Counted from the first letter of the stretch, positions 11,724-52,958 are shown. The stretch is 64,000 bases of DNA from Bacteroidota bacterium (GCA_033854175.1 JAWOKN010000096.1:73725-137724), one strand, 5' to 3'. Notes: generated from the sequence alone by a model not told the origin. Numbers and translations: made by a program.

Positions 11724-12161
11724 TTAGGAGGGGATGGACATTTTCATGATGACCCGCGATCCTCCAGGGAAGCGGGAAAACTCAACACTATCCATCAGCG
11801 AGCGCATGAGGAAAACCCCGCGTCCGTTTTCGCGGAGGATGTTTTCCTCTGAAAGAGGATCCGGGAGGGTTTCAGGGTTGACCCCTTGTCCTTCATCCTC
11901 CACCGTGATGAGTAAAAGTCCGTTGTCTGTTTCGCAAACGAGAACGACTTTCTTGTGCGGATCTCGATTATTGCCATGAAGAATGCCGTTATTCACGGCT
12001 TCTGTGGTTGCAATGAGAAGTTTATTAAACGAGGAATCATCGAGATGGAGCTGTTCGTTGAGTTTCTCAAGAAATCCTTCTACTTTCATAATTTCATTCG
12101 GTACGCTGGTGAGGACCAGACGCACATGAATTTGATTATTTCTCCGCGTAATCTTTTTCAT
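11724..12161 (-). CDS. RsbW/SpoIIAB-like anti-sigma-factor serine kinase (HATPase_c)
   Basis: The N box is TTEAVNNGILHGN, the G1 box is DEGQGV and the G2 box is GRGVFLM. The ATG at 12161 overlaps the upstream stop as TGATG. The listed ORF starts one codon earlier at a TTG. Confidence 0.8.
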   Translation of the reverse strand: MKKITRRNNQIHVRLVLTSVPNEIMKVEGFLEKLNEQLHLDDSSFNKLLIATTEAVNNGILHGNNRDPHKKVVLVCETDNGLLLITVEDEGQGVNPETLPDPLSEENILRENGRGVFLMRSLMDSVEFSRFPGGSRVIMKMSIPS

Positions 12162-14083
12162 CAAATATGAACGATGAGGTTCATGGACATATTCGTAAAG
12201 CCACGATCGGGTTCTCCGGTCTGATGTTGAGTTTCATACCACCCTTTGAGTGAAAAGGATGCATTTTCACCGGGTATCCATGCAATTTCCGTCGATGGGC
12301 CGATGCTGCGAAGGAAATGGTCAACATATTCTTGAGAATCCTGATAGCTATAACGTAATTGACTAAAATAACGAAACCCTACCGAGAAAAGCAAACTTGA
12401 ACGGAGCCTGTACCGTATTGAAAAAGCGTAGAGCTTATCTTGGAAGGAGTTTACAGGACGTTCAGAAAAGTCGCTCCAGCGGAGTTGGCCCTGTTCGTAA
12501 AACTTAATCTGATGCATCCAGTGGAGAGTCATCCTTGGTGTCAGGGTATATGTTGATGAATCATGCCACGCAAATTCCCGATAAGCAAAGCTCTGGATAG
12601 GGGAGCTCGGGAATTCATAATCATATGCTGTGTAATTTGCGGTGACCTCAAAAGTATTTGAGGTTGTCAATGACAGAGAGGGACTGTAATCGAGTGTCGG
12701 GGCTAACCGTAGAATTCGGTTCCAAGTGTTGCTTGCGCTTCGTGTTGATGCAAGGTAGACGAGATGCATCATGTTCAGATCGCCTGTCAAGCGTGCGACA
12801 AGATACCGGTTTATCCGGTGGAGACCGCTAAAATTAAACGCGTACCAGAGCTCATCCCTATCATCATCATTTTCTTGGCTCGGCGTATCGTACCGGAGAA
12901 GGTTCTCGGAGCCGGAGATTAGAAGAGAATTATCAGATGAAGATGTAATGGCAAATTCCGCCGTCAGTCCGGTTCGGCGAGAGTGATTATTTTTTCGTTC
13001 TTCTTCCTGGGTCAGTGAGTTGAAGAGGAGGACATCCACACCCGGGTTGTCGAGTGTATGGCGTTCGTCCCGTTCAGCATAATCAAACCGTACCGATGTG
13101 CGAACACTGTCGTAGGGTTTGAACGAGAGTTTGGCCGAACTTTCCAGGCGAAGCTCATCGATGGTTGTTGGAAGTGACGATCCCAGTGGATTGGTGAGAG
13201 CCCGATATAATGTGGTTCGTCCAATCTCCCTTCCGGCCACCGCACCACTCAGCGAAAACAACGTCTGCTTGCTGATGGCGTAACCCAGCGTGTCAATGAA
13301 TCCGACAAAATCTTCTGTTCTTGATTCAATATTGTAGATGACGTTATACTGCCTGCGGAGAGCGGAATCGGCTGAAATGTAAATGTCACGGCGCAAGAAC
13401 GAGTAAAATATCTGCAGAGAATTCTTGGTGTCTTCGATAAACGTTTTATCGACGGTTAAGAACAGATTGCGGGTGTCTGCCCGTCGTGGGGTGATCTGAT
13501 CATATCTCCATTTCCCCGAAAGGGCCGTTTGATAACCGTTATAATCAACCGTATCGAGGGAGGTCGATAGCAGATACGATAATCCCTTGTCGGTGGGTTC
13601 CGTTTGTTTGTCAAATGTAACACCGATGAGGGGTTCGAGTGTAAAGCGGGACATAGGTCGGAGTTCGATTCCTCCGAACACAGATTCAGCTGAGGTTTTC
13701 CCCAGATCAATACTTCGGTCATCTGAGAGAATGAACCCGGAAGCTTTTATGGTCCCTGATAGCAGAGTCGAAATTCGCTGGCGTAGAATAAGATCAAATT
13801 GTTCCTGATCAGTAATATACGCGCGATCTGTCCGGATAACGGATGAGAGAAATTCTTCGTTAAGGGAACAAAATAATGACCCAAAAAGGTTCTGGTATGC
13901 TCCGTGGCTATCCCAATGGTAGGTGTTATAAACATTGTTGAAGTAGAATGCAATATTGTTCCTGTTATGGAGGGAATCAATGGTGGACGGCTGAATATGA
14001 ATATCAGTGATTTCCTGTCCAGAGGATCGTATGGCAAAGATGAAACAAGTACAGCCGATGAGGAGCAATAAGCGGATCACCAT
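12161..14083 (-). CDS. Hypothetical secreted protein, probable outer-membrane beta-barrel
   Basis: The signal peptide is MVIRLLLLIGCTCFIFAIRSSGQ. The protein is 640 aa, rich in S/T/Y/R/N, with alternating beta-strand-like patterning to the C-terminus. I recognise no enzyme motif. Confidence 0.6.
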   Translation of the reverse strand: MVIRLLLLIGCTCFIFAIRSSGQEITDIHIQPSTIDSLHNRNNIAFYFNNVYNTYHWDSHGAYQNLFGSLFCSLNEEFLSSVIRTDRAYITDQEQFDLILRQRISTLLSGTIKASGFILSDDRSIDLGKTSAESVFGGIELRPMSRFTLEPLIGVTFDKQTEPTDKGLSYLLSTSLDTVDYNGYQTALSGKWRYDQITPRRADTRNLFLTVDKTFIEDTKNSLQIFYSFLRRDIYISADSALRRQYNVIYNIESRTEDFVGFIDTLGYAISKQTLFSLSGAVAGREIGRTTLYRALTNPLGSSLPTTIDELRLESSAKLSFKPYDSVRTSVRFDYAERDERHTLDNPGVDVLLFNSLTQEEERKNNHSRRTGLTAEFAITSSSDNSLLISGSENLLRYDTPSQENDDDRDELWYAFNFSGLHRINRYLVARLTGDLNMMHLVYLASTRSASNTWNRILRLAPTLDYSPSLSLTTSNTFEVTANYTAYDYEFPSSPIQSFAYREFAWHDSSTYTLTPRMTLHWMHQIKFYEQGQLRWSDFSERPVNSFQDKLYAFSIRYRLRSSLLFSVGFRYFSQLRYSYQDSQEYVDHFLRSIGPSTEIAWIPGENASFSLKGWYETQHQTGEPDRGFTNMSMNLIVHI

Positions 14084-24814: not shown

Positions 24815-25276
24815 GGGATGATGGTACGGCAGTTTATTCGGGAATGGCCATTCATCGGATCGTGAAAAGGGTCAGTCGGGGGAGGGAGAGGTACCTCTGC
24901 TTGGTTAAAAAACACATAAGCAAACGTTGGCACCGATGAATCCTCACGAAGAAATGAACTACATCATGGTTTACACAACATACAAAATGTGCGAATGATT
25001 TGCAAAACATCGCTGCCCCGTTTACTTTGCAAATTATGTTCCCCGTGGCATAGCGATACCGATCTCGCTGCTGCTGATTTCTCAGGTGGACATATCAATC
25101 TGAGCAAAAGCAGGGTCACAACCCGCTCAAATACATTAGTCAGTTTTCGAATGCGGATGTCGATTTATTCGGTGAGGTGGGTAGAACTTTCGCTCGCGAG
25201 AATTTTCTGCCGGATTTCATGAGTATTCCCTAGAATAATTCCGGCAATGACATCGGATCTATTTTTCAGCAGTAAC

Positions 25277-25310
25277 AAAAAACCCTCTGTGGTCCTCACA
25301 GAGGGTTTTT
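25277..25310. terminator. Bidirectional rho-independent terminator
   Basis: A6-CCCTCTGTG-ggtcct-CACAGAGGG-T5. The perfect 9-bp GC-rich stem (25283-25291/25297-25305) is flanked by an A-run and a T-run. Confidence 0.65.
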
Positions 25311-25512
25311 CTCGTGTTCCCTAATCCACAACTTCCTGCGGTGCTCTTTAAGGAGAAATGAAGTCATCATCATCATCCAACGCCGTGCCTGCGCCGTTGG
25401 CACCACAAGCAGGAGGGTAAAAAATTCCACTTCTAATCGATAATCTCCCAAGTTATCAAAGTAGAAGCTTGGTTTTCATACTCTCCTTACCATATATTCA
25501 TTACATTCGGAA

Positions 25513-26942
25513 TTATCTGCGGAAAATTTTATCATAAAATTTTAAAAGGTGAATTTCTCCGATCATAATATGATGAATTCGCGATTCCCTGGGCATGGTA
25601 TCGGACTGTTTTCTCTTATATCTTTCAAGCTCGGGATTTATGAAATGGACATGCCCGAACTTGGAAGAAATTCTCAGGCGGCAGCAATGGGATACGCGAA
25701 GAAAGCTACTCCGGATGAATAACGGAGGATTAAAGTTTAGCGTGGCTCGAGAGGAGGATAGTTCATTCCGTAGACGCACTCAATCGATGTCGACCTTTCG
25801 TAACGACACGGACCCATTCAATTCCATTCCAATATTGAATATGATCTCGCAGATTGGAGAGGCAGGTCAGAGTGATGAGCCCCGTCAGCTTACTTTCTTC
25901 AACAAGGTTTTGATGAAACGCGTCGATATTATTATCGGATTTTATCCGGAGCAATTTCAGGATATGATAAAAATAATAATGAAAATCGAAGTGAATCCCG
26001 CCTAAGGATCCGCTTACAACCGTGATCTGGAGGGTTTGTTCATAGGTTTCAGTAATCCGGGCCACGATGCCGTGGGTATGGAAAAGCGTGTCGAGATCTG
26101 AGAGAGGGAGTCGGTTATAATAGAATTCGGCATCTGAGGGCCAAGTAGAAAATTCCTGCACGGTGTGGCTTTCCTGCGGTCGAGGATGCCATCCGGCCGG
26201 AGAACGGCGAGCATTGGGAACTCCTCGTGCGTGATATCTTTTGTGTCGTTCTATCCGCCTGCAAGTAATTCTTCAGCACCTGTGTGGTCGAGATCCCTGA
26301 AGAGCATTGGGCTGAATTGGCCGAAGTGCCAGTATTCATCGAGTGTATTTCCATCAGGGTCCAGCCTGCACAACACCGAAGGTGATCTTCCAAGGCTATT
26401 TCCTACGACAAATATTTCACTCTTGCCGTCAATAACTTTCCGGGTCAGAAGATAAGTAAGGTTGATATACGGACTGTATTCGTCCACTCTACCGGCGAGA
26501 TGCACTGTTCGCCGGATCGCTCTGTGACGATGAAGTTTTGCAGAAATTGAACGGAGAGGTTCATATTGCGCAAGATCTTGCTGAGACCGGGATCGGTCTC
26601 ATGATAGATCCGGAATATGCTCTGATTCATGCGGAAAAAAACAAGTCTCCGGAGATGTACGAGGAACTACTCAACGTTCGAACTTTCGGGTGATATTCCA
26701 TTGAAGTAAAGTTTGATCTGCAAAAAAGTGCCCGTGGTATCCCTGTTACATAGATCGGCGATACAATCGAGGACTAAATCTTCCAGCCTTAGTGCAGAGA
26801 AATCACGATACATCTGACCCGTAGACACTTTTTTCCTGAGATAGACGAGAGCGGTTTTTCTGCAAATAAAAGTGAGTTCTCTGCCAGCATTGTCGTCAGG
26901 ATGGGATGAGAAGATACTCTCAAGTATTTTCTTTATCTCCAC
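25513..26942 (-). pseudogene. Decayed gene: a chain of five or six overlapping minus-strand ORFs broken by two in-frame TAG codons and at least three frame changes
   Basis: ORFs 26667-26942 and 26445-26630 share a frame and are separated by TAG 26667-26669. The frame switches near 26505. TAG at 26251-26253 interrupts ...DLDHTGAEELLAGG*NDTKDITHEEF.... The frame switches again near 26170 and 25770. Confidence 0.5.
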
Positions 26943-27026
26943 GAGGCTTATAATTAATCAAGCGATGCTCCCCCGATTGTTGCAGGTAGTGTAGAAAAGT
27001 GATAAAAAATCAAGGTGATAAAATGC

Positions 27027-30685: not shown

Positions 30686-31552
30686 TCACAGTGAGACGTC
30701 CCCGGCCGGCGAACCAAGGCGAGCACTGGATATTCCACGCAGATGCAATCCGGTTTCCTCGGTCAAGGTAATAAAATCATCGGTATCCAATTCCTCGGGT
30801 CGCTTATTAAGCGGAAACTTGATCATTCCAAGCAATTTGTTGACTGTCTGTTCATCATACGGAAGATAATGTAAACTGTTGCGAAGTGTCTTCCGGCGTT
30901 TGCCGAAGGTTGTCCGGATAATTGTCCGAAAAAGTTTCTGATCGACATTATACCGCACCTGACCGAAGATCCGCAGCTGAATGACTGAGGAGGTCACACG
31001 TGGTTTGGGATAAAAGCATTCAGGTGAAACATCGAAAAGGATAGCAGGTGAGCTGTAAAATTGAGTAAGAACGCTCAAAATCCCATATGCTTTTGTGTTC
31101 GGCCTAGCGATTATACGCTGCGCAACCTCCCGTTGTACCATGAAGGTGCAGTCGGTGATATCTGCTGTGTGATCGATAATCTTAAAGAGGATCGGGCTTG
31201 TGAGATGATAGGGAATATTCCCGACAATTCTAAATTTTTGATGGAATTTTTTCCGCCAGGAGGTAAAATCGGTGTTTAGGATATCCTCGTGCACGACGGT
31301 AACTTTGGTGCAATTGAACTCGCGTCGAAGGCTTTCAACGATTCGACCATCGATTTCAATAAGAGCGATGGCTTTGACCAATGGAACCAGGGAACGGGAG
31401 AGAGCGCCATTTCCGGGACCGATTTCAAGGAAGCAATCGTTTCCGGTCGGAACTAGGTGGCGGAGAGTTTTCCGGATAATATTATCATCGACAAGGAAAT
31501 TTTGACCGAGAGATTGTTTAGGCTTGAACGTCAGGTGTCGCGGCGACATCAC
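30686..31552 (-). CDS. rsmA: 16S rRNA (adenine1518/1519-N6)-dimethyltransferase
   Basis: KQSLGQNFLVDDNIIRK, LEIGPGNGALS and NIPYHLTSPI. Confidence 0.93.
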   Translation of the reverse strand: MMSPRHLTFKPKQSLGQNFLVDDNIIRKTLRHLVPTGNDCFLEIGPGNGALSRSLVPLVKAIALIEIDGRIVESLRREFNCTKVTVVHEDILNTDFTSWRKKFHQKFRIVGNIPYHLTSPILFKIIDHTADITDCTFMVQREVAQRIIARPNTKAYGILSVLTQFYSSPAILFDVSPECFYPKPRVTSSVIQLRIFGQVRYNVDQKLFRTIIRTTFGKRRKTLRNSLHYLPYDEQTVNKLLGMIKFPLNKRPEELDTDDFITLTEETGLHLRGISSARLGSPAGDVSL

Positions 31553-31554
31553 GA

Positions 31555-34053
31555 TCAGGGTTTTTTAAAGAGATTCTTCAAACCTTCTTTGACTTTGTTT
31601 TTCAGGGCATCTTCACCCTTCTGTTGAAGGGCTTTTCTGGCCATTTCCTGCTGTGCCTGGGTGTCAAGCTGCAACGCCGGATTCGAAGATGTACCACCGA
31701 CGTGGAACGGCAGGTTGAGTCTACCATCTTTGTCCTTGAAATACTCTAGAAGATTTCCCGCAACGCCGGGTAAGTTTATTTTGCCCGACATTTCAGGAGG
31801 AAGCTTTACCGTCAGTGCGTAGTCAAGCGTGCCATCAAGCCCCTGGGAACCATTGAGAGCGAAGCTGGTGGTACCTGCGTCCACCTTTAAATCCTTCACG
31901 TTTAATCTTCCATTTGCGACGGAAAAAGAATTGGTCCAGTCCTTGAAATTGATCACTTTGAGCTGATCCGCACCGGTAAGAGATGCAAGTTTTTGTGTAA
32001 GCGGAAACCCGGTCAGTTTGCCCTCGAAAACTTTTGCGAGGCCATCGCCCGTCAGAGATTGTGTGTTGAGCCCCATCGTGTCGTTCAGATCGCCCCGTAA
32101 TTTTGTGTTCATGGTAAGCTTGCCGAAGAGATACTGCCCAAATGATGTGAAATTTGACAGCAGGGCATTCGATTCGACATTATTGATCGCGAGATCAAGA
32201 TTAAACGGCCGGTTATTTTCGTTGCGCAGATCGAGGGTTCCCTTTGTCTGAATCGATCCCTGGAAGGCGTTGACAGAAAATGATTTCAGATCGGCGATCC
32301 CATTACTTAGTGTCAGAGAACCCTTTGCATTCGTGAAGGAGAATTTATCCGTGACAAGTTTGTCAACGGCAACATCGGCTGCGACATCGAATCCTGGAAG
32401 AAGGCTCCCCTGTTTTTGATATGTTTTCTTTGACTCTGCTGTCTTCGGTGGCGCAGGTGATCCGGTGGCCAGATCCATAGTCCTGAGTTGATGGGAGATC
32501 AGTTTCACCGTTGCTGATGGATTTACACCGGATTTCTCACCTCTTGGAAATACCAGGGGAAGATAGTTCTTCAAAGCGAATGAAAGATTGAGATCAGACT
32601 CGCCGATGTTCAGAGCTATCTGTTTTGATTCAACTATCTGGTTGTTGATAGTGATCGTACCATTAAGGTTGCGGATGGGTTTTGGTGTCCCGGAGCTCTG
32701 AATGGTGACGTTCTGAAAATTGATCGTCCCTTTTCCGTTCAATGACTGCGGATTGTTTACTTTTCCGTCAATGGAGATATTGGTCTGAATTATCCCGTTG
32801 TACTCTGATCCCTTCTCAAGTGGATAAAATTCCTTTATCTCTGCGAGATTGAGTTTACCGGCTATCGAGGCGGAAACGAGGGGATCATCGAAATGAGAAA
32901 CATGAACCTTTCCGCTGATATCGTTCGACCCAATCCGAGCAGCAAACTGTTCAATCGAAAAATTTCCTATACCAGTTGCCCCCACCGGCGCAGAAGGTTT
33001 TTCGAATAAGCCACTCATGGTCATGTTCGTGATCGATTTCGGAAGAGATGAATACTGAATTTTTCCATTAGTTACACTGAAGGAAGCAGTTGTAGCCGGA
33101 TTAACGGTTGCACTGGACGGTCCCGCCATTTTTACGGAAAATTTTACATCTCCGGAGGTTGTCAGACCGGCTGTCTTTTTCAGCATATCGGGAGGAATAA
33201 GCGAGAGCAGTTGTTCCATCGTGGCACCTGGCGATGTGATCGTCAGATCCATGATGTTGGTGGTTTGTTGTAGCTGTGCAATGGTGCCTGTCGCGGTGAT
33301 TGGGAGATCACGCACGTGGCCATTGACATTGTCAAGCGATAGAACATCTTTATCGAGAGCGTAGGATATCCGGGAGTCAGCTTTCAACGGTTGATCGGAT
33401 AAATACCACGCCTTTGTTGTGCCATAGCTGATTTTGTCGATGGATGACAAGGCGTCAATAACAATGGTATTCTCACTCTGCCTGGATTCCGCCGATGCTT
33501 TTACATTGATTCCCTCAAATAGCATACGGCTGTCGAACTTGTTGTCCACCATTTCAAATTCACCGTCGTCAATCTCAAGATCGGAAACCAGCAATCCGCC
33601 GCCGACAGATGTCGGGGACCCACCTTTTTGAGGCTGGGGGGAGGTTGAACCTGAAGAATAATTTTTTATTCCGCCCTTGGTTACCTCAAGATAGATAATC
33701 GGACGTTGGAGTATAATTCTCCCAATTTCTATCTTCCCCGAAATCAGCGGAAGGAGTTTAACATTGATGGAGAGATGATCGAGGGAGATGAATGTATTAC
33801 GGTCGAATTTTGCTCCATCCGGATTTGAAAGGGTCAGACTATCGATAGAGACTGCGAGGGATGGAAAAACCGAAAGAGAGATCTCCTTCACTCCGACCTG
33901 TCGATGGGTTGTCTCTTCAATCCTTGGGAGGACCATCGCTTGAAGCCGATCGCTTGTGAAATAGAGTTTTGCTGCGATGATGATGATGAGAAGTAAGATA
34001 ATGGGGACTGAAATGATGATAATCCAGATTTTTGCCATTTTACTTATCGCCAT
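31555..34053 (-). CDS. AsmA-family outer-membrane biogenesis protein
   Basis: An N-terminal TM anchor (IWIIIISVPIILLLIIIIAAKLYF) is followed by about 800 aa of repetitive beta-rich sequence. The stop is 2 nt before rsmA. Confidence 0.7.
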   Translation of the reverse strand: MAISKMAKIWIIIISVPIILLLIIIIAAKLYFTSDRLQAMVLPRIEETTHRQVGVKEISLSVFPSLAVSIDSLTLSNPDGAKFDRNTFISLDHLSINVKLLPLISGKIEIGRIILQRPIIYLEVTKGGIKNYSSGSTSPQPQKGGSPTSVGGGLLVSDLEIDDGEFEMVDNKFDSRMLFEGINVKASAESRQSENTIVIDALSSIDKISYGTTKAWYLSDQPLKADSRISYALDKDVLSLDNVNGHVRDLPITATGTIAQLQQTTNIMDLTITSPGATMEQLLSLIPPDMLKKTAGLTTSGDVKFSVKMAGPSSATVNPATTASFSVTNGKIQYSSLPKSITNMTMSGLFEKPSAPVGATGIGNFSIEQFAARIGSNDISGKVHVSHFDDPLVSASIAGKLNLAEIKEFYPLEKGSEYNGIIQTNISIDGKVNNPQSLNGKGTINFQNVTIQSSGTPKPIRNLNGTITINNQIVESKQIALNIGESDLNLSFALKNYLPLVFPRGEKSGVNPSATVKLISHQLRTMDLATGSPAPPKTAESKKTYQKQGSLLPGFDVAADVAVDKLVTDKFSFTNAKGSLTLSNGIADLKSFSVNAFQGSIQTKGTLDLRNENNRPFNLDLAINNVESNALLSNFTSFGQYLFGKLTMNTKLRGDLNDTMGLNTQSLTGDGLAKVFEGKLTGFPLTQKLASLTGADQLKVINFKDWTNSFSVANGRLNVKDLKVDAGTTSFALNGSQGLDGTLDYALTVKLPPEMSGKINLPGVAGNLLEYFKDKDGRLNLPFHVGGTSSNPALQLDTQAQQEMARKALQQKGEDALKNKVKEGLKNLFKKP

Positions 34054-50864: not shown

Positions 50865-51788
50865 TTATAGTCTTTTCCGGATAATGAAGCGCACGTGCTC
50901 GGGTTTTATACTTACGATTTTTACGCCATCAAGATCATTGAGGTGAGGTGCGACGGATGTGACGGTGTCCTGGACAAGATCGCTGTATGGGACTGTCGGT
51001 TGAAAATCGGTATCCGTCAGCCGTGCGAGCTGATCGATTCCTCCGCGTGCGATGAGATCAATTTTAGGGGGGATGAAAATGACTTCCCTGTTTGTAGGGG
51101 CCCCCTGGCAGTTCATCGTGATCCCGCTGAATGTTTTCTCCGCGAAGGGCTGAACGTTGAGCCGCAGGTGCGTTACTGATGTGAAAAGTTCGATTGAATG
51201 GGTTGTGGGCACTTCAAGAGGGATATCGACATCGAGCGGCGAGTGAAGATTGTCAAATTTCCGGTATTCTGTCGGCCAGCCGGAGATGTTCCCTAGAATG
51301 GTCTGTGAACCCCCTATACGGAGGCTATCGGGGAGGAACTGCATTTGACCGACCTGCCCGTAGCCATCGCGGAACTCGAGAACGATCCGTGGTTCGATCG
51401 GCACCTCTTTTTCTCCATACTCGTCAAGTGCGAGAACAAGCGTATCGGGTTTCACGTCAATGGGTTGCAATACGACCGGGAGCTTAATATGTTCAAGTAG
51501 ATCACGGCCGGTTATGATAAATTTTTCTTCTCCGATAGAGGAGACGTCTATAAAATATTTTACATCGGGTGACAGATAAAGTCCGGCTAGCTGCCATCCG
51601 TTACCCCGCAGACGGACATTGACATTCGTGGGGAGCGGATATTTCAGCGCCTGGCCTTCTTTCATGTTTTCAAGAACGACGGGGATTTGCTTCGTAATGG
51701 TATATTCATCACGCATGTTGATGGATAGCCAGGTCAGAATCGCAAAGATGACCGCTGCGACGATGATATGATAACGTTTCTGATCCAT
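50865..51788 (-). CDS. YbbR-like domain-containing membrane-anchored protein
   Basis: An N-terminal TM helix (IIVAAVIFAILTWLSI) is followed by repeated beta-rich modules (IPVVLENM..., VNVRLRG...), as in YbbR/CdaR proteins. Confidence 0.65.
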   Translation of the reverse strand: MDQKRYHIIVAAVIFAILTWLSINMRDEYTITKQIPVVLENMKEGQALKYPLPTNVNVRLRGNGWQLAGLYLSPDVKYFIDVSSIGEEKFIITGRDLLEHIKLPVVLQPIDVKPDTLVLALDEYGEKEVPIEPRIVLEFRDGYGQVGQMQFLPDSLRIGGSQTILGNISGWPTEYRKFDNLHSPLDVDIPLEVPTTHSIELFTSVTHLRLNVQPFAEKTFSGITMNCQGAPTNREVIFIPPKIDLIARGGIDQLARLTDTDFQPTVPYSDLVQDTVTSVAPHLNDLDGVKIVSIKPEHVRFIIRKRL

Positions 51789-51835: not shown

Positions 51836-51863
51836 AAAACAAAAAACTCCATTGCGGATGGAG
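51836..51863 (-). terminator. Rho-independent terminator of the BMC shell cassette
   Basis: On the minus strand, CTCCAT-ccgca-ATGGAG (51847-51852/51858-51863) is followed by TTTTTTGTTTT (51836-51846). It lies 24 nt after the stop of the 201-aa BMC gene. Confidence 0.65.
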
Positions 51864-51886
51864 TGATGGGAGAAAACATGATAATT

Positions 51887-52492
51887 TTATTTCCTAAACT
51901 TTGCCTTTACAAGTTCGTCAATCAATTCCTGGCGGTTAGCGCGGGAGATTTGCCTCCCGAATATCGCTAGACCGGGGACGGTTCGCGCATAATGTCGGAG
52001 GGCGTGAACGGTCAAATCTTCAAGTTGTTGACGGTAAGTCTTTTCATCCTCAGCCGATGGTTCCTGAATACCCGCATTCGCTTTATCTACCGTTGGGCCG
52101 GTCGTGGTCTCGTCGGCCGCCGCAGTCTGGGTGAATGGGGGAGTTTGTAGTGATTTTTTCTGGCGGGGTGGTGCTGGTCTGGATTCTTCGGGTGATGGTA
52201 CGGGGGGCATAGGTTTCACCGGTGGATAGATAAGGATTTCCGTTTCGTCATCGGGACGGGGGATGACGTGCACAGAAACAAGTTCACCGACGCGCTGGGC
52301 TGCTGCCGCACCGGCATCGACGGCGGCACGGACCGCAGCGACATCACCGCGGAGTTTTATCGTAATAAGTCCTGCTTCTGCCCTCTCCTTGCCGATCAGC
52401 TGAACGTCCGCCGCTTTGACGGCCGCATCCGCGGCCTCAATAGCGCCGACGAGACCCCGAGTTTCAATTAATCCTAAGGCGTAGTCGAGCAT
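51887..52492 (-). CDS. BMC-H domain shell protein with a Pro-rich linker and a Rho_N/HeH-like C-terminal extension
   Basis: Residues 1-85 match PF00936 (LGLIETRGLVGAIEAADAAVKAA...[22 protein letters not shown]). Residues 86-150 are P/T/A/E-rich. Residues 152-197 read LEDLTVHALRHYARTVPGLAIFGRQISRANRQELIDELVK. Confidence 0.85.
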   Translation of the reverse strand: MLDYALGLIETRGLVGAIEAADAAVKAADVQLIGKERAEAGLITIKLRGDVAAVRAAVDAGAAAAQRVGELVSVHVIPRPDDETEILIYPPVKPMPPVPSPEESRPAPPRQKKSLQTPPFTQTAAADETTTGPTVDKANAGIQEPSAEDEKTYRQQLEDLTVHALRHYARTVPGLAIFGRQISRANRQELIDELVKAKFRK

Positions 52493-52520
52493 ACCATACG
52501 AGCAGTTTTAAATTTTCGTG

Positions 52521-52552
52521 ATGAAGGGGAGCAGATGCTGTCTCCCCTTCAT
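52521..52552 (-). promoter_or_regulatory. Intercistronic stem-loop between the two BMC genes
   Basis: A perfect 10-bp stem, ATGAAGGGGA (52521-52530) with TCCCCTTCAT (52543-52552), and a 12-nt loop. No T-run follows on the transcribed strand. Confidence 0.5.
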
Positions 52553-52578
52553 ACGGTTACACATCAAGAGATGAAATG

Positions 52579-52875
52579 CTATTTCGTTTGTGGGCGCTTG
52601 GGGAGAATCATTTCAACATCCATGTGGGGACGCGGGATGACATGGACCGATACAAGTTCACCGACGCGCTGTGCTGCCGCTGCCCCGGCATCGGTTGCTG
52701 CCTTGACAGCTCCGACATCGCCGCGCACCATGACCGTGACATATCCACCCCCGATAACTTCTTTCCCAATGAGGGTGACCTTTGCGGCTTTCACCATTGC
52801 GTCTGCAGCCTCTATCGAACCTACCAGCCCTTTGGTTTCTACCATGCCAAGCGCATCGAGTGATATATCTGACAT
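52579..52875 (-). CDS. BMC-H shell protein (PduA/EutM/CcmK-type hexamer subunit)
   Basis: 98 aa: [75 protein letters not shown]. The PF00936 pattern is canonical. Confidence 0.92.
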
Positions 52876-52929
52876 GAAGATTTTCTCCTTTCAAGACTTT
52901 TGTATAGACACACCTATTTCAGCGAAGTG

Positions 52930-52958
52930 AATATAGCGAATCGGGAGCATATTGTCAA
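52930..52958 (-). promoter_or_regulatory. Near-consensus sigma70 promoter TTGACA-17-TATATT for the BMC cassette
   Basis: On the minus strand the -35 is at 52953-52958 and the -10 at 52930-52935, with a 17-nt spacer. AAGGAG (52885-52890) sits 9 nt before the ATG at 52875. Confidence 0.55.

Follow-up and report, generated by a model that had tools for sequence, protein, structure and literature searches.

A two-gene shell-protein cassette that probably belongs to a FRAG1-type fragmented microcompartment of an Ignavibacteria-like bacterium

Two adjacent BMC-H genes and their relatives

We examined a 64-kb stretch of DNA from a Bacteroidota bacterium (GCA_033854175.1, JAWOKN010000096.1:73725-137724; the full stretch is referred to as the window), in which a cassette of two adjacent open reading frames (ORFs) on the minus strand encodes hexamer-forming shell proteins (BMC-H) of bacterial microcompartments (BMCs). 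A preliminary description of this DNA had placed the two genes at 52579-52875 (98 aa) and 51887-52492 (201 aa), and both were recovered at exactly these positions. Comparison with Pfam revealed full-model PF00936 matches of 100.3 bits for the 98-aa protein and 98.8 bits for the 201-aa protein, far above the gathering cut-off of 24.5 bits, and the two proteins were 69% identical across 84 aa.

The shorter protein is a basal, EutM-like BMC-H and the proposed main facet hexamer. It passed the NCBIfam EutM equivalog threshold (135.5 bits; cut-off, 133) and contains a PRPH edge motif at residues 81-84, a GGG pore loop at residues 42-44 and, at residues 29-32, a KAAK motif that is one residue off the KAAN of many basal hexamers. 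The longer protein, referred to here as the tailed hexamer, carries its BMC domain at aa 1-80 (52253-52492), with the edge motifs altered to KAAD and PRPD and a pore loop reading RAEAG, followed by an extension of 120 aa that ends in a confidently predicted helical domain.

To place the pair in context, we used a set of 96 non-redundant, non-Bacillota loci that carry the tail, metagenome loci included. A contig search with full-length alignment yielded at least 80 loci, most of which were BMC loci of Firmicutes without relation to the pair; the loci listed did not include cultured Ignavibacterium or Melioribacter. The basal hexamer gene lay directly upstream of the tailed one in 52 of the 62 related loci that reached far enough. 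Between the window and one related locus (L001), the basal hexamer was 97% identical, versus only 49-62% for AsmA, KsgA, the YbbR-like protein, PdxJ and the tailed hexamer itself, which indicates strong purifying selection, and the pair is therefore no remnant.

The two genes share an identical block of 20 nt, present twice (52278-52297 and 52652-52671) where no such repeat is expected by chance and embedded in a 120-nt direct repeat of 75% identity. The block had been noticed before, with its first copy one base off (52279-52298), and taken as a sign of local duplication; the block is real, but that interpretation does not hold. Across eight relatives, the longest identical run between the paralogs ranged from 9 to 20 nt at differing positions, and both paralogs were found throughout the lineage. 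Since the run varies in length and place among genomes, the paralogy is ancient, and a recent local duplication was rejected.

Two further possibilities were also set aside. The ORFs on the opposite strand at 52535-52930 (131 aa) and 52268-52471 (67 aa) are shadows of an Ala/Gly-rich, GC-rich coding strand and not genes, and the elevated GC content of 0.55-0.57, compared with 0.48 overall, is explained by the same Ala/Gly-rich coding, so that a horizontal-transfer island was rejected.

Transcription signals of the cassette

The cassette is preceded by a sigma-70-like promoter, TTGACA-17-TATATT (52930-52958, minus strand), which agrees with the consensus at 11 of 12 positions. The same arrangement, ATTGACA-17-TAT(A/T)TT, was kept in ten of 12 related loci at a fixed distance of ~55 nt upstream of the ATG. 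A Shine-Dalgarno sequence read from the DNA, AAGGAG (52885-52890), lies 9 nt before the first start codon, and a GGAG-type motif occupied this position in all 12 relatives compared (GGA in L001). Downstream of the second gene, a terminator scan located an intrinsic terminator at 51836-51864, consisting of a stem-loop (51864-51846) and a T-run; a CTCCA...TGGAG hairpin with T-run was present 3' of the second gene in seven of 12 loci (the window, L001, L085, L087, L007, L016 and L061). In most relatives, the gene upstream of the pair is transcribed away from it. Because the promoter and the terminator are both conserved, the pair is best read as an independent transcription unit, as the preliminary description had proposed from the same promoter, Shine-Dalgarno and terminator elements.

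Two other features of the non-coding DNA were recorded. A strong GC-rich hairpin lies between the two genes (52517-52555, minus strand; RNA fold of -29.9 kcal/mol, z = -4.3) with no T-run after it, and might lower expression of the tailed relative to the basal hexamer and so set the ratio of the two proteins. L001 and L087 have only ~35 nt between the genes and thus cannot contain the hairpin. In addition, the promoter spacer between -35 and -10, ATATGCTCCC, is near-identical in the four closest genomes (the window, L001, L085 and L087), while the intergenic DNA around it differs among them; the spacer may be an operator.

The C-terminal tail of the second hexamer

Structure prediction of the 201-aa protein with AlphaFold2, using 120 homologs, revealed three regions: a BMC fold with a predicted local distance difference test (pLDDT) score above 90, a linker with scores of 43-55 and a four-helix C-terminal domain again above 90. 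The linker region (aa 81-146; 52055-52252) begins with a conserved segment, DDETEILIYPP, and continues as a disordered, Pro-rich stretch, which in the 120 homologs spans 33-88 aa with ~20% Pro and a charge near neutral. The C-terminal domain (aa 147-201 plus the stop codon; 51887-52054) was also predicted as four helices when the tail was modelled alone (pLDDT, 88.7), and the tail core carries a mean net charge of +4.

Sub-threshold similarities point to a helix-extended-helix module of the Rho_N/SAP kind. Pfam Rho_N (PF07498) matched 21 of 22 family tails below threshold (best E, 9e-5), and the tail from the window reached 19.1 bits (cut-off, 24.9). Foldseek ranked the Rho N-terminus (TM-score, 0.59; root-mean-square deviation, 1.7 Å; 44 columns) and the SAP domain of DEK highest, all matches having E >1. 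Like Rho N-terminal, SAP and LEM modules, the tail combines two helices with an extended G-rich loop and a basic surface; unlike them, it gives matches that stay below significance and is mostly found fused to BMC domains. EutK_C (PF16365) did not match any of the 22 tail-family members scanned at E up to 1-10, EutK was not among the Foldseek matches of the tail, and the tail profile had no match to Protein Data Bank (PDB) chains at E up to 10. The full-length protein scored 86.7 bits against the NCBIfam EutK model NF012010 (cut-off, 218) through its BMC domain only. The tail thus appears to be a positively charged Rho_N/SAP-like helical module, to judge from these sub-threshold similarities and the predicted fold, and not EutK_C.

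Searching 1.84 billion proteins with the tail profile yielded 501 representative clusters. A recognisable BMC domain was fused to the tail in 96 of the best 150 of these representatives, and many of the other sequences among the best 150 are short, apparently either fragments or BMC domains that have diverged. On this count, the tail module is largely BMC-associated. More than 100 full-length homologs of the tailed hexamer were found at 58-80% identity, and those with names come from Ignavibacteria or from Bacteroidota metagenome-assembled genomes (MAGs).

Pentamer and cargo genes around the cassette

We scanned essentially all genes of the window with Pfam and found no pentamer (BMC-P) domain (PF03319), aldehyde dehydrogenase, PduL or PduS, and likewise no class II or DeoC aldolase, glycyl-radical enzyme or RuBisCO. 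A hidden Markov model (HMM) of BMC-P, built from five PDB pentamers, gave no match in six-frame translations of the window, while the same model detected pentamers in 58 other loci that were compared. A BMC-H HMM found no third BMC domain in the window beside the two known ones, and the ~10 kb beyond the window on one side held nothing BMC-related. These scans agree with the earlier claim that neither a pentamer nor a recognisable cargo gene is encoded in the 64 kb. The pair agrees with the first two conditions of the satellite-locus definition of Axen et al. 2014, the third of which concerns the whole genome.

The relatives revealed the same scarcity. None of the genome-derived loci from the Fibrobacteres-Chlorobi-Bacteroidetes (FCB) group had a pentamer gene within 10 kb, only one of 80 metagenome loci had one, and no aldehyde dehydrogenase, PduL or PduS was detected in the FCB or metagenome loci by phmmer searches with the L026 proteins as queries. 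This scarcity of pentamers fits a fragmented layout, in which the parts of the shell are encoded at separate sites.

The same tail in other microcompartments

Hexamers with the same tail (~50% identity) also occur in complete ethanolamine utilization (EUT) loci of Bacillota, one from Candidatus Formimonas warabiya and two from MAGs. All three encode EutA, EutN, PduS, PduT and aldehyde dehydrogenase; EutB and EutC were also confirmed in both MAG loci, and EutQ and PduL in the Formimonas locus. In two of the three the tailed hexamer directly follows an EutM-like gene. In all three (L012, L014 and L026), the hexamer in the position of EutK has a Rho_N-like tail in place of EutK_C, so that hexamers in this position carry at least two unrelated tail folds. 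The cassette studied here resembles the EutM/EutK pair in its order, a basal and then a tailed hexamer, in the EutM equivalog match of its first protein and in the positive charge and apparent nucleic-acid-binding type of its tail. It differs from that pair in having no eut enzymes nearby, in matching the EutK model only over the BMC domain, in lacking PF16365 and in its far longer, disordered linker.

A second setting was found in marine metagenome contigs (L156, L165 and L159/L160), in which the tailed hexamer lies ~4 kb from other BMC genes. Two of these, L156 (81-4707) and L165 (13-4092), encode a class II aldolase with a tail of ~100 residues ending in ...EEITRRVVESLRSQG or ...DEITRRVMEELQKRA; the EITRRV-type amphipathic helix of this tail resembles an encapsulation peptide and is likely to be one. 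Acetate kinase follows in L156, L165, L159 and L160, and BMC-P is present in L156 only. The marine loci offer a possible hint at what FRAG1-like compartments enclose, with sugar-phosphate aldolase chemistry as the lead and sugar-phosphate catabolism as a candidate function. The same four contigs also carry a Reg_prop protein.

Assignment to the FRAG1 type

In their catalogue of BMC loci, Sutter et al. 2021 (Nat Commun 12:3809, PMC8217296) described FRAG types, in which the shell genes are spread across as many as six sites. According to their Supplementary Data 2, FRAG1 comprises 57 loci, encodes shell proteins only and is most prominent in Ignavibacteria, with further occurrences in Kryptonia, Bacteroidetes, Chlorobi and Rhodothermaeota. 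Its hexamers are a near-standard BMC-H and then one whose long C-terminal extension includes an ordered domain, and among the entries listed in the published tree is a FRAG1 hexamer of 229 aa from Ignavibacteria, in clade teal2c. A BMC-P triplet (green, grey and orange clades) is found at other sites of FRAG1 genomes, in some together with PduS/PduT. FRAG1 has no main locus and often no identifiable enzymes, and no encapsulation peptides were found in FRAG genomes.

The pair shares with FRAG1 its lineage, its enzyme-free shell genes and the makeup of its hexamers. The 98-aa protein, with PRPH, KAAK and an EutM equivalog match, corresponds to the near-standard hexamer, and the 201-aa protein, with its 120-aa extension and helical domain, to the second; neither enzymes nor pentamers lie beside the hexamers in the 64 kb; and the names among the homologs are those of Ignavibacteria and related FCB groups, with related locus titles of Ignavibacteria, Bacteroidota, Chlorobiales and Rhodothermales. 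The window, whose proteins are also on record in assembly GCA_037917075.1 and which encodes a type IX secretion system sorting domain, thus comes from an Ignavibacteria-like genome. We conclude, with a probability of roughly 0.78, that the two genes encode the facet proteins of a FRAG1-type fragmented BMC of an Ignavibacteria-like bacterium, expressed from their own promoter and ended by their own terminator.

Several points weigh against this conclusion. The FRAG1 assignment was made by match to the published description rather than by the catalogue's HMMs, and the basal hexamer has KAAK, whereas the catalogue's "standard" motif is KAAN. The catalogue likens the FRAG1 tail to EutK, whereas the tail found here is Rho_N/SAP-like and does not match EutK_C, so that any analogy with EutK crosses different tail folds, and the Rho_N/SAP likeness itself lies under the Pfam bit-score cut-off and at a Foldseek E >1. 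The 64 kb plus ~10 kb surveyed of this genome contain no pentamer, PduS/T or cargo gene, and a search seeded with the HO BMC-P returned, among the matches listed, Myxococcota-type relatives and no Ignavibacteria pentamer.

As a two-gene BMC-H cassette that is autonomous and has neither pentamer nor cargo nearby, the locus is much as it was originally portrayed, but it is not a new system, since hexamer fragments of Ignavibacteria with no pentamer and no cargo are FRAG1 as catalogued in 2021. The pair is real but of a kind already catalogued, and neither a conserved position after rodA nor the local duplication proposed earlier survived comparison with relatives.

Alternative explanations

One alternative is an ordinary satellite locus that tunes the hexamers of a conventional main BMC elsewhere in the genome, for example of the MIC4 or PVM-like type, with aldehyde dehydrogenase, phosphotransacylase (PTAC), class II aldolase and acetate kinase. 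We consider this unlikely, although in Melioribacter roseus seven BMC-P genes are spread over five loci, one of them non-satellite (Axen et al. 2014), the tree of Sutter et al. labels proteins of M. roseus both MIC4 (main) and FRAG1 (sat), and the marine relatives place the tailed hexamer ~4 kb from BMC-P, class II aldolase and acetate kinase. The catalogue assigns this type of pair to FRAG1, for which there is no main locus and often no identifiable enzyme, and neither the window nor the 10 kb around the pair in genome-derived FCB relatives contained such a locus. A satellite locus overlaps the FRAG1 assignment rather than opposing it. The earlier proposal of a satellite serving a main locus fits FRAG1 in that partners are expected elsewhere, but without a main locus the word "satellite" is only loosely right. 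The hexamer-only ccmK3/ccmK4 satellites of cyanobacteria are likewise separately transcribed away from other shell genes; they differ in serving a defined main locus with known cargo, the carboxysome, whereas FRAG1 has neither.

BMC-H proteins alone can form sheets and tubes, and the pair might accordingly build a structural, pentamer-free and cargo-free sheet, tube or scaffold, maybe tethered to nucleic acid by the tail. The absence of pentamers and enzymes in 64 kb, the autonomous cassette with its consensus-like promoter and the failure of the catalogue to find encapsulation peptides in FRAG genomes are compatible with such a structure. Yet FRAG1 genomes by definition carry a BMC-P triplet at other sites, the same tailed hexamer occurs in EUT and marine loci that contain pentamers, and little can be concluded about a genome of several Mb from what 64 kb of it lacks; we regard this alternative, also put forward in the preliminary description, as very improbable. 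We hold it likewise very improbable that the pair and the genes after it, ybbR-like and pdxJ, form one functional unit, such as a compartment anchored in the membrane or related to vitamin B6. In favour of such a unit, 50 of 73 related loci, among them Rhodothermales at only 25% identity, have a YbbR-like gene no more than 400 nt after the pair; the two YbbR-like homologs looked up on contigs outside the list of hexamer matches both lie after the pair; and PdxJ follows in many Ignavibacteria. On the other side, the conserved intrinsic terminator separates the cassette from the ybbR-like gene and argues against a common operon, the YbbR-like protein probably has its body in the periplasm, the Pfam domain of PdxJ spans residues 2-234 of 240 with no extension added to it, and Chlorobiales and marine relatives are without this neighbour.

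A possible role for the tailed hexamer

If the FRAG1 assignment is correct, the 98-aa EutM-like hexamer would tile the facets and the 201-aa paralog would co-assemble with it as a minor component. In solved shells such as the HO shell structures, the C-terminus of BMC-H lies on the concave, cytosol-facing side, so that the tail would point outward, presenting six tethered basic helix-extended-helix domains per hexamer to the cytosol. There, the tails most likely bind nucleic acid or another cytosolic partner and would thereby position and partition the compartments, a role that we infer by analogy. After deletion of eutK in Salmonella, Eut compartments stay static at the poles, and the positively charged tail of EutK was proposed to act like ParB in binding nucleotides (PMC12487888). 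That hexamers in the EutK position of Bacillota EUT loci share the tail suggests a common positioning device for microcompartments. The BMC-P triplet for the vertices and the cargo, as well as PduS/PduT, which only some genomes have, would be expected at other sites of this genome.

A bolder version, which we consider distinctly improbable, is that FRAG1 hexamers build no closed metabolic organelle: they would make up a pentamer-free lattice or an open shell that six basic helix-extended-helix tails per hexamer keep on the nucleoid or RNA, a structural or organising scaffold and not a metabolosome. In a milder version, a closed FRAG1 compartment might sit on the nucleoid through the tail, with the EITRRV-type class II aldolase of the marine relatives as its cargo. 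FRAG compartments have no known cargo or function, and three leads may make FRAG1 tractable: the identity of the tail, the conserved consensus-like promoter and terminator, and the marine link to a pentamer, an aldolase and an acetate kinase.

Neighbouring genes

Pfam confirmed the flanks given in the preliminary description, with RodA, PBP2, MreD, MreC and MreB upstream of the pair and the YbbR-like protein and PdxJ downstream. The position downstream of rodA was not conserved, as RodA was upstream in one of the 96 related loci and AsmA in 14, and we accordingly rejected a functional link to rodA/mreBCD. The usual order in Ignavibacteria is KsgA-AsmA (divergent), BMC-H, tailed BMC-H, YbbR-like, PdxJ and then BFN-ETF (convergent). 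In the window, KsgA-AsmA lies at 30686-34053, ~18 kb from the pair (51887-52875), with his, dap, seryl-tRNA synthetase (SerRS), ABC-exporter, fructose-bisphosphatase (FBPase) and electron transfer flavoprotein (ETF) genes in between. Because KsgA-AsmA abuts the pair in most relatives, a lineage-specific rearrangement has brought mreBCD-mrdA-rodA to the upstream side of the cassette.

The YbbR-like protein (50865-51788, minus strand; 307 aa) is membrane-anchored and probably not part of the shell system. It matched PF07949 at 27.4 bits (cut-off, 22.3) over one weak stretch, had no NCBIfam or PDB match and has an N-terminal transmembrane helix preceded by K/R, on which the probable periplasmic location of its body is based. 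The gene family has 195 matches and looks restricted to this lineage, and it was seen in L001, L005, L007, L009, L013, L016, L034, L045, L056, L061, L085 and L087. No DisA_N (cdaA) gene was seen in the window or in the relatives examined.

Rfam and tRNA scans of the window gave no match. A 2.2-kb interval (24815-27026) contains only small ORFs (61-136 aa), four of which were scanned and had no Pfam match, and a 640-aa ORF on the minus strand (12161-14083) matched no Pfam family at E up to 0.001. The window otherwise consists of housekeeping genes, including those for SurA-like peptidyl-prolyl isomerases, MoxR, L21/L27, a lactate/malate dehydrogenase (Ldh_1 family), CTP synthase, a P-type ATPase and purine biosynthesis alongside the KsgA, AsmA, dap, his, SerRS, ABC-exporter, FBPase and ETF genes mentioned above, and it encodes an S8 protease with a type IX secretion system (T9SS) sorting domain at its tail.

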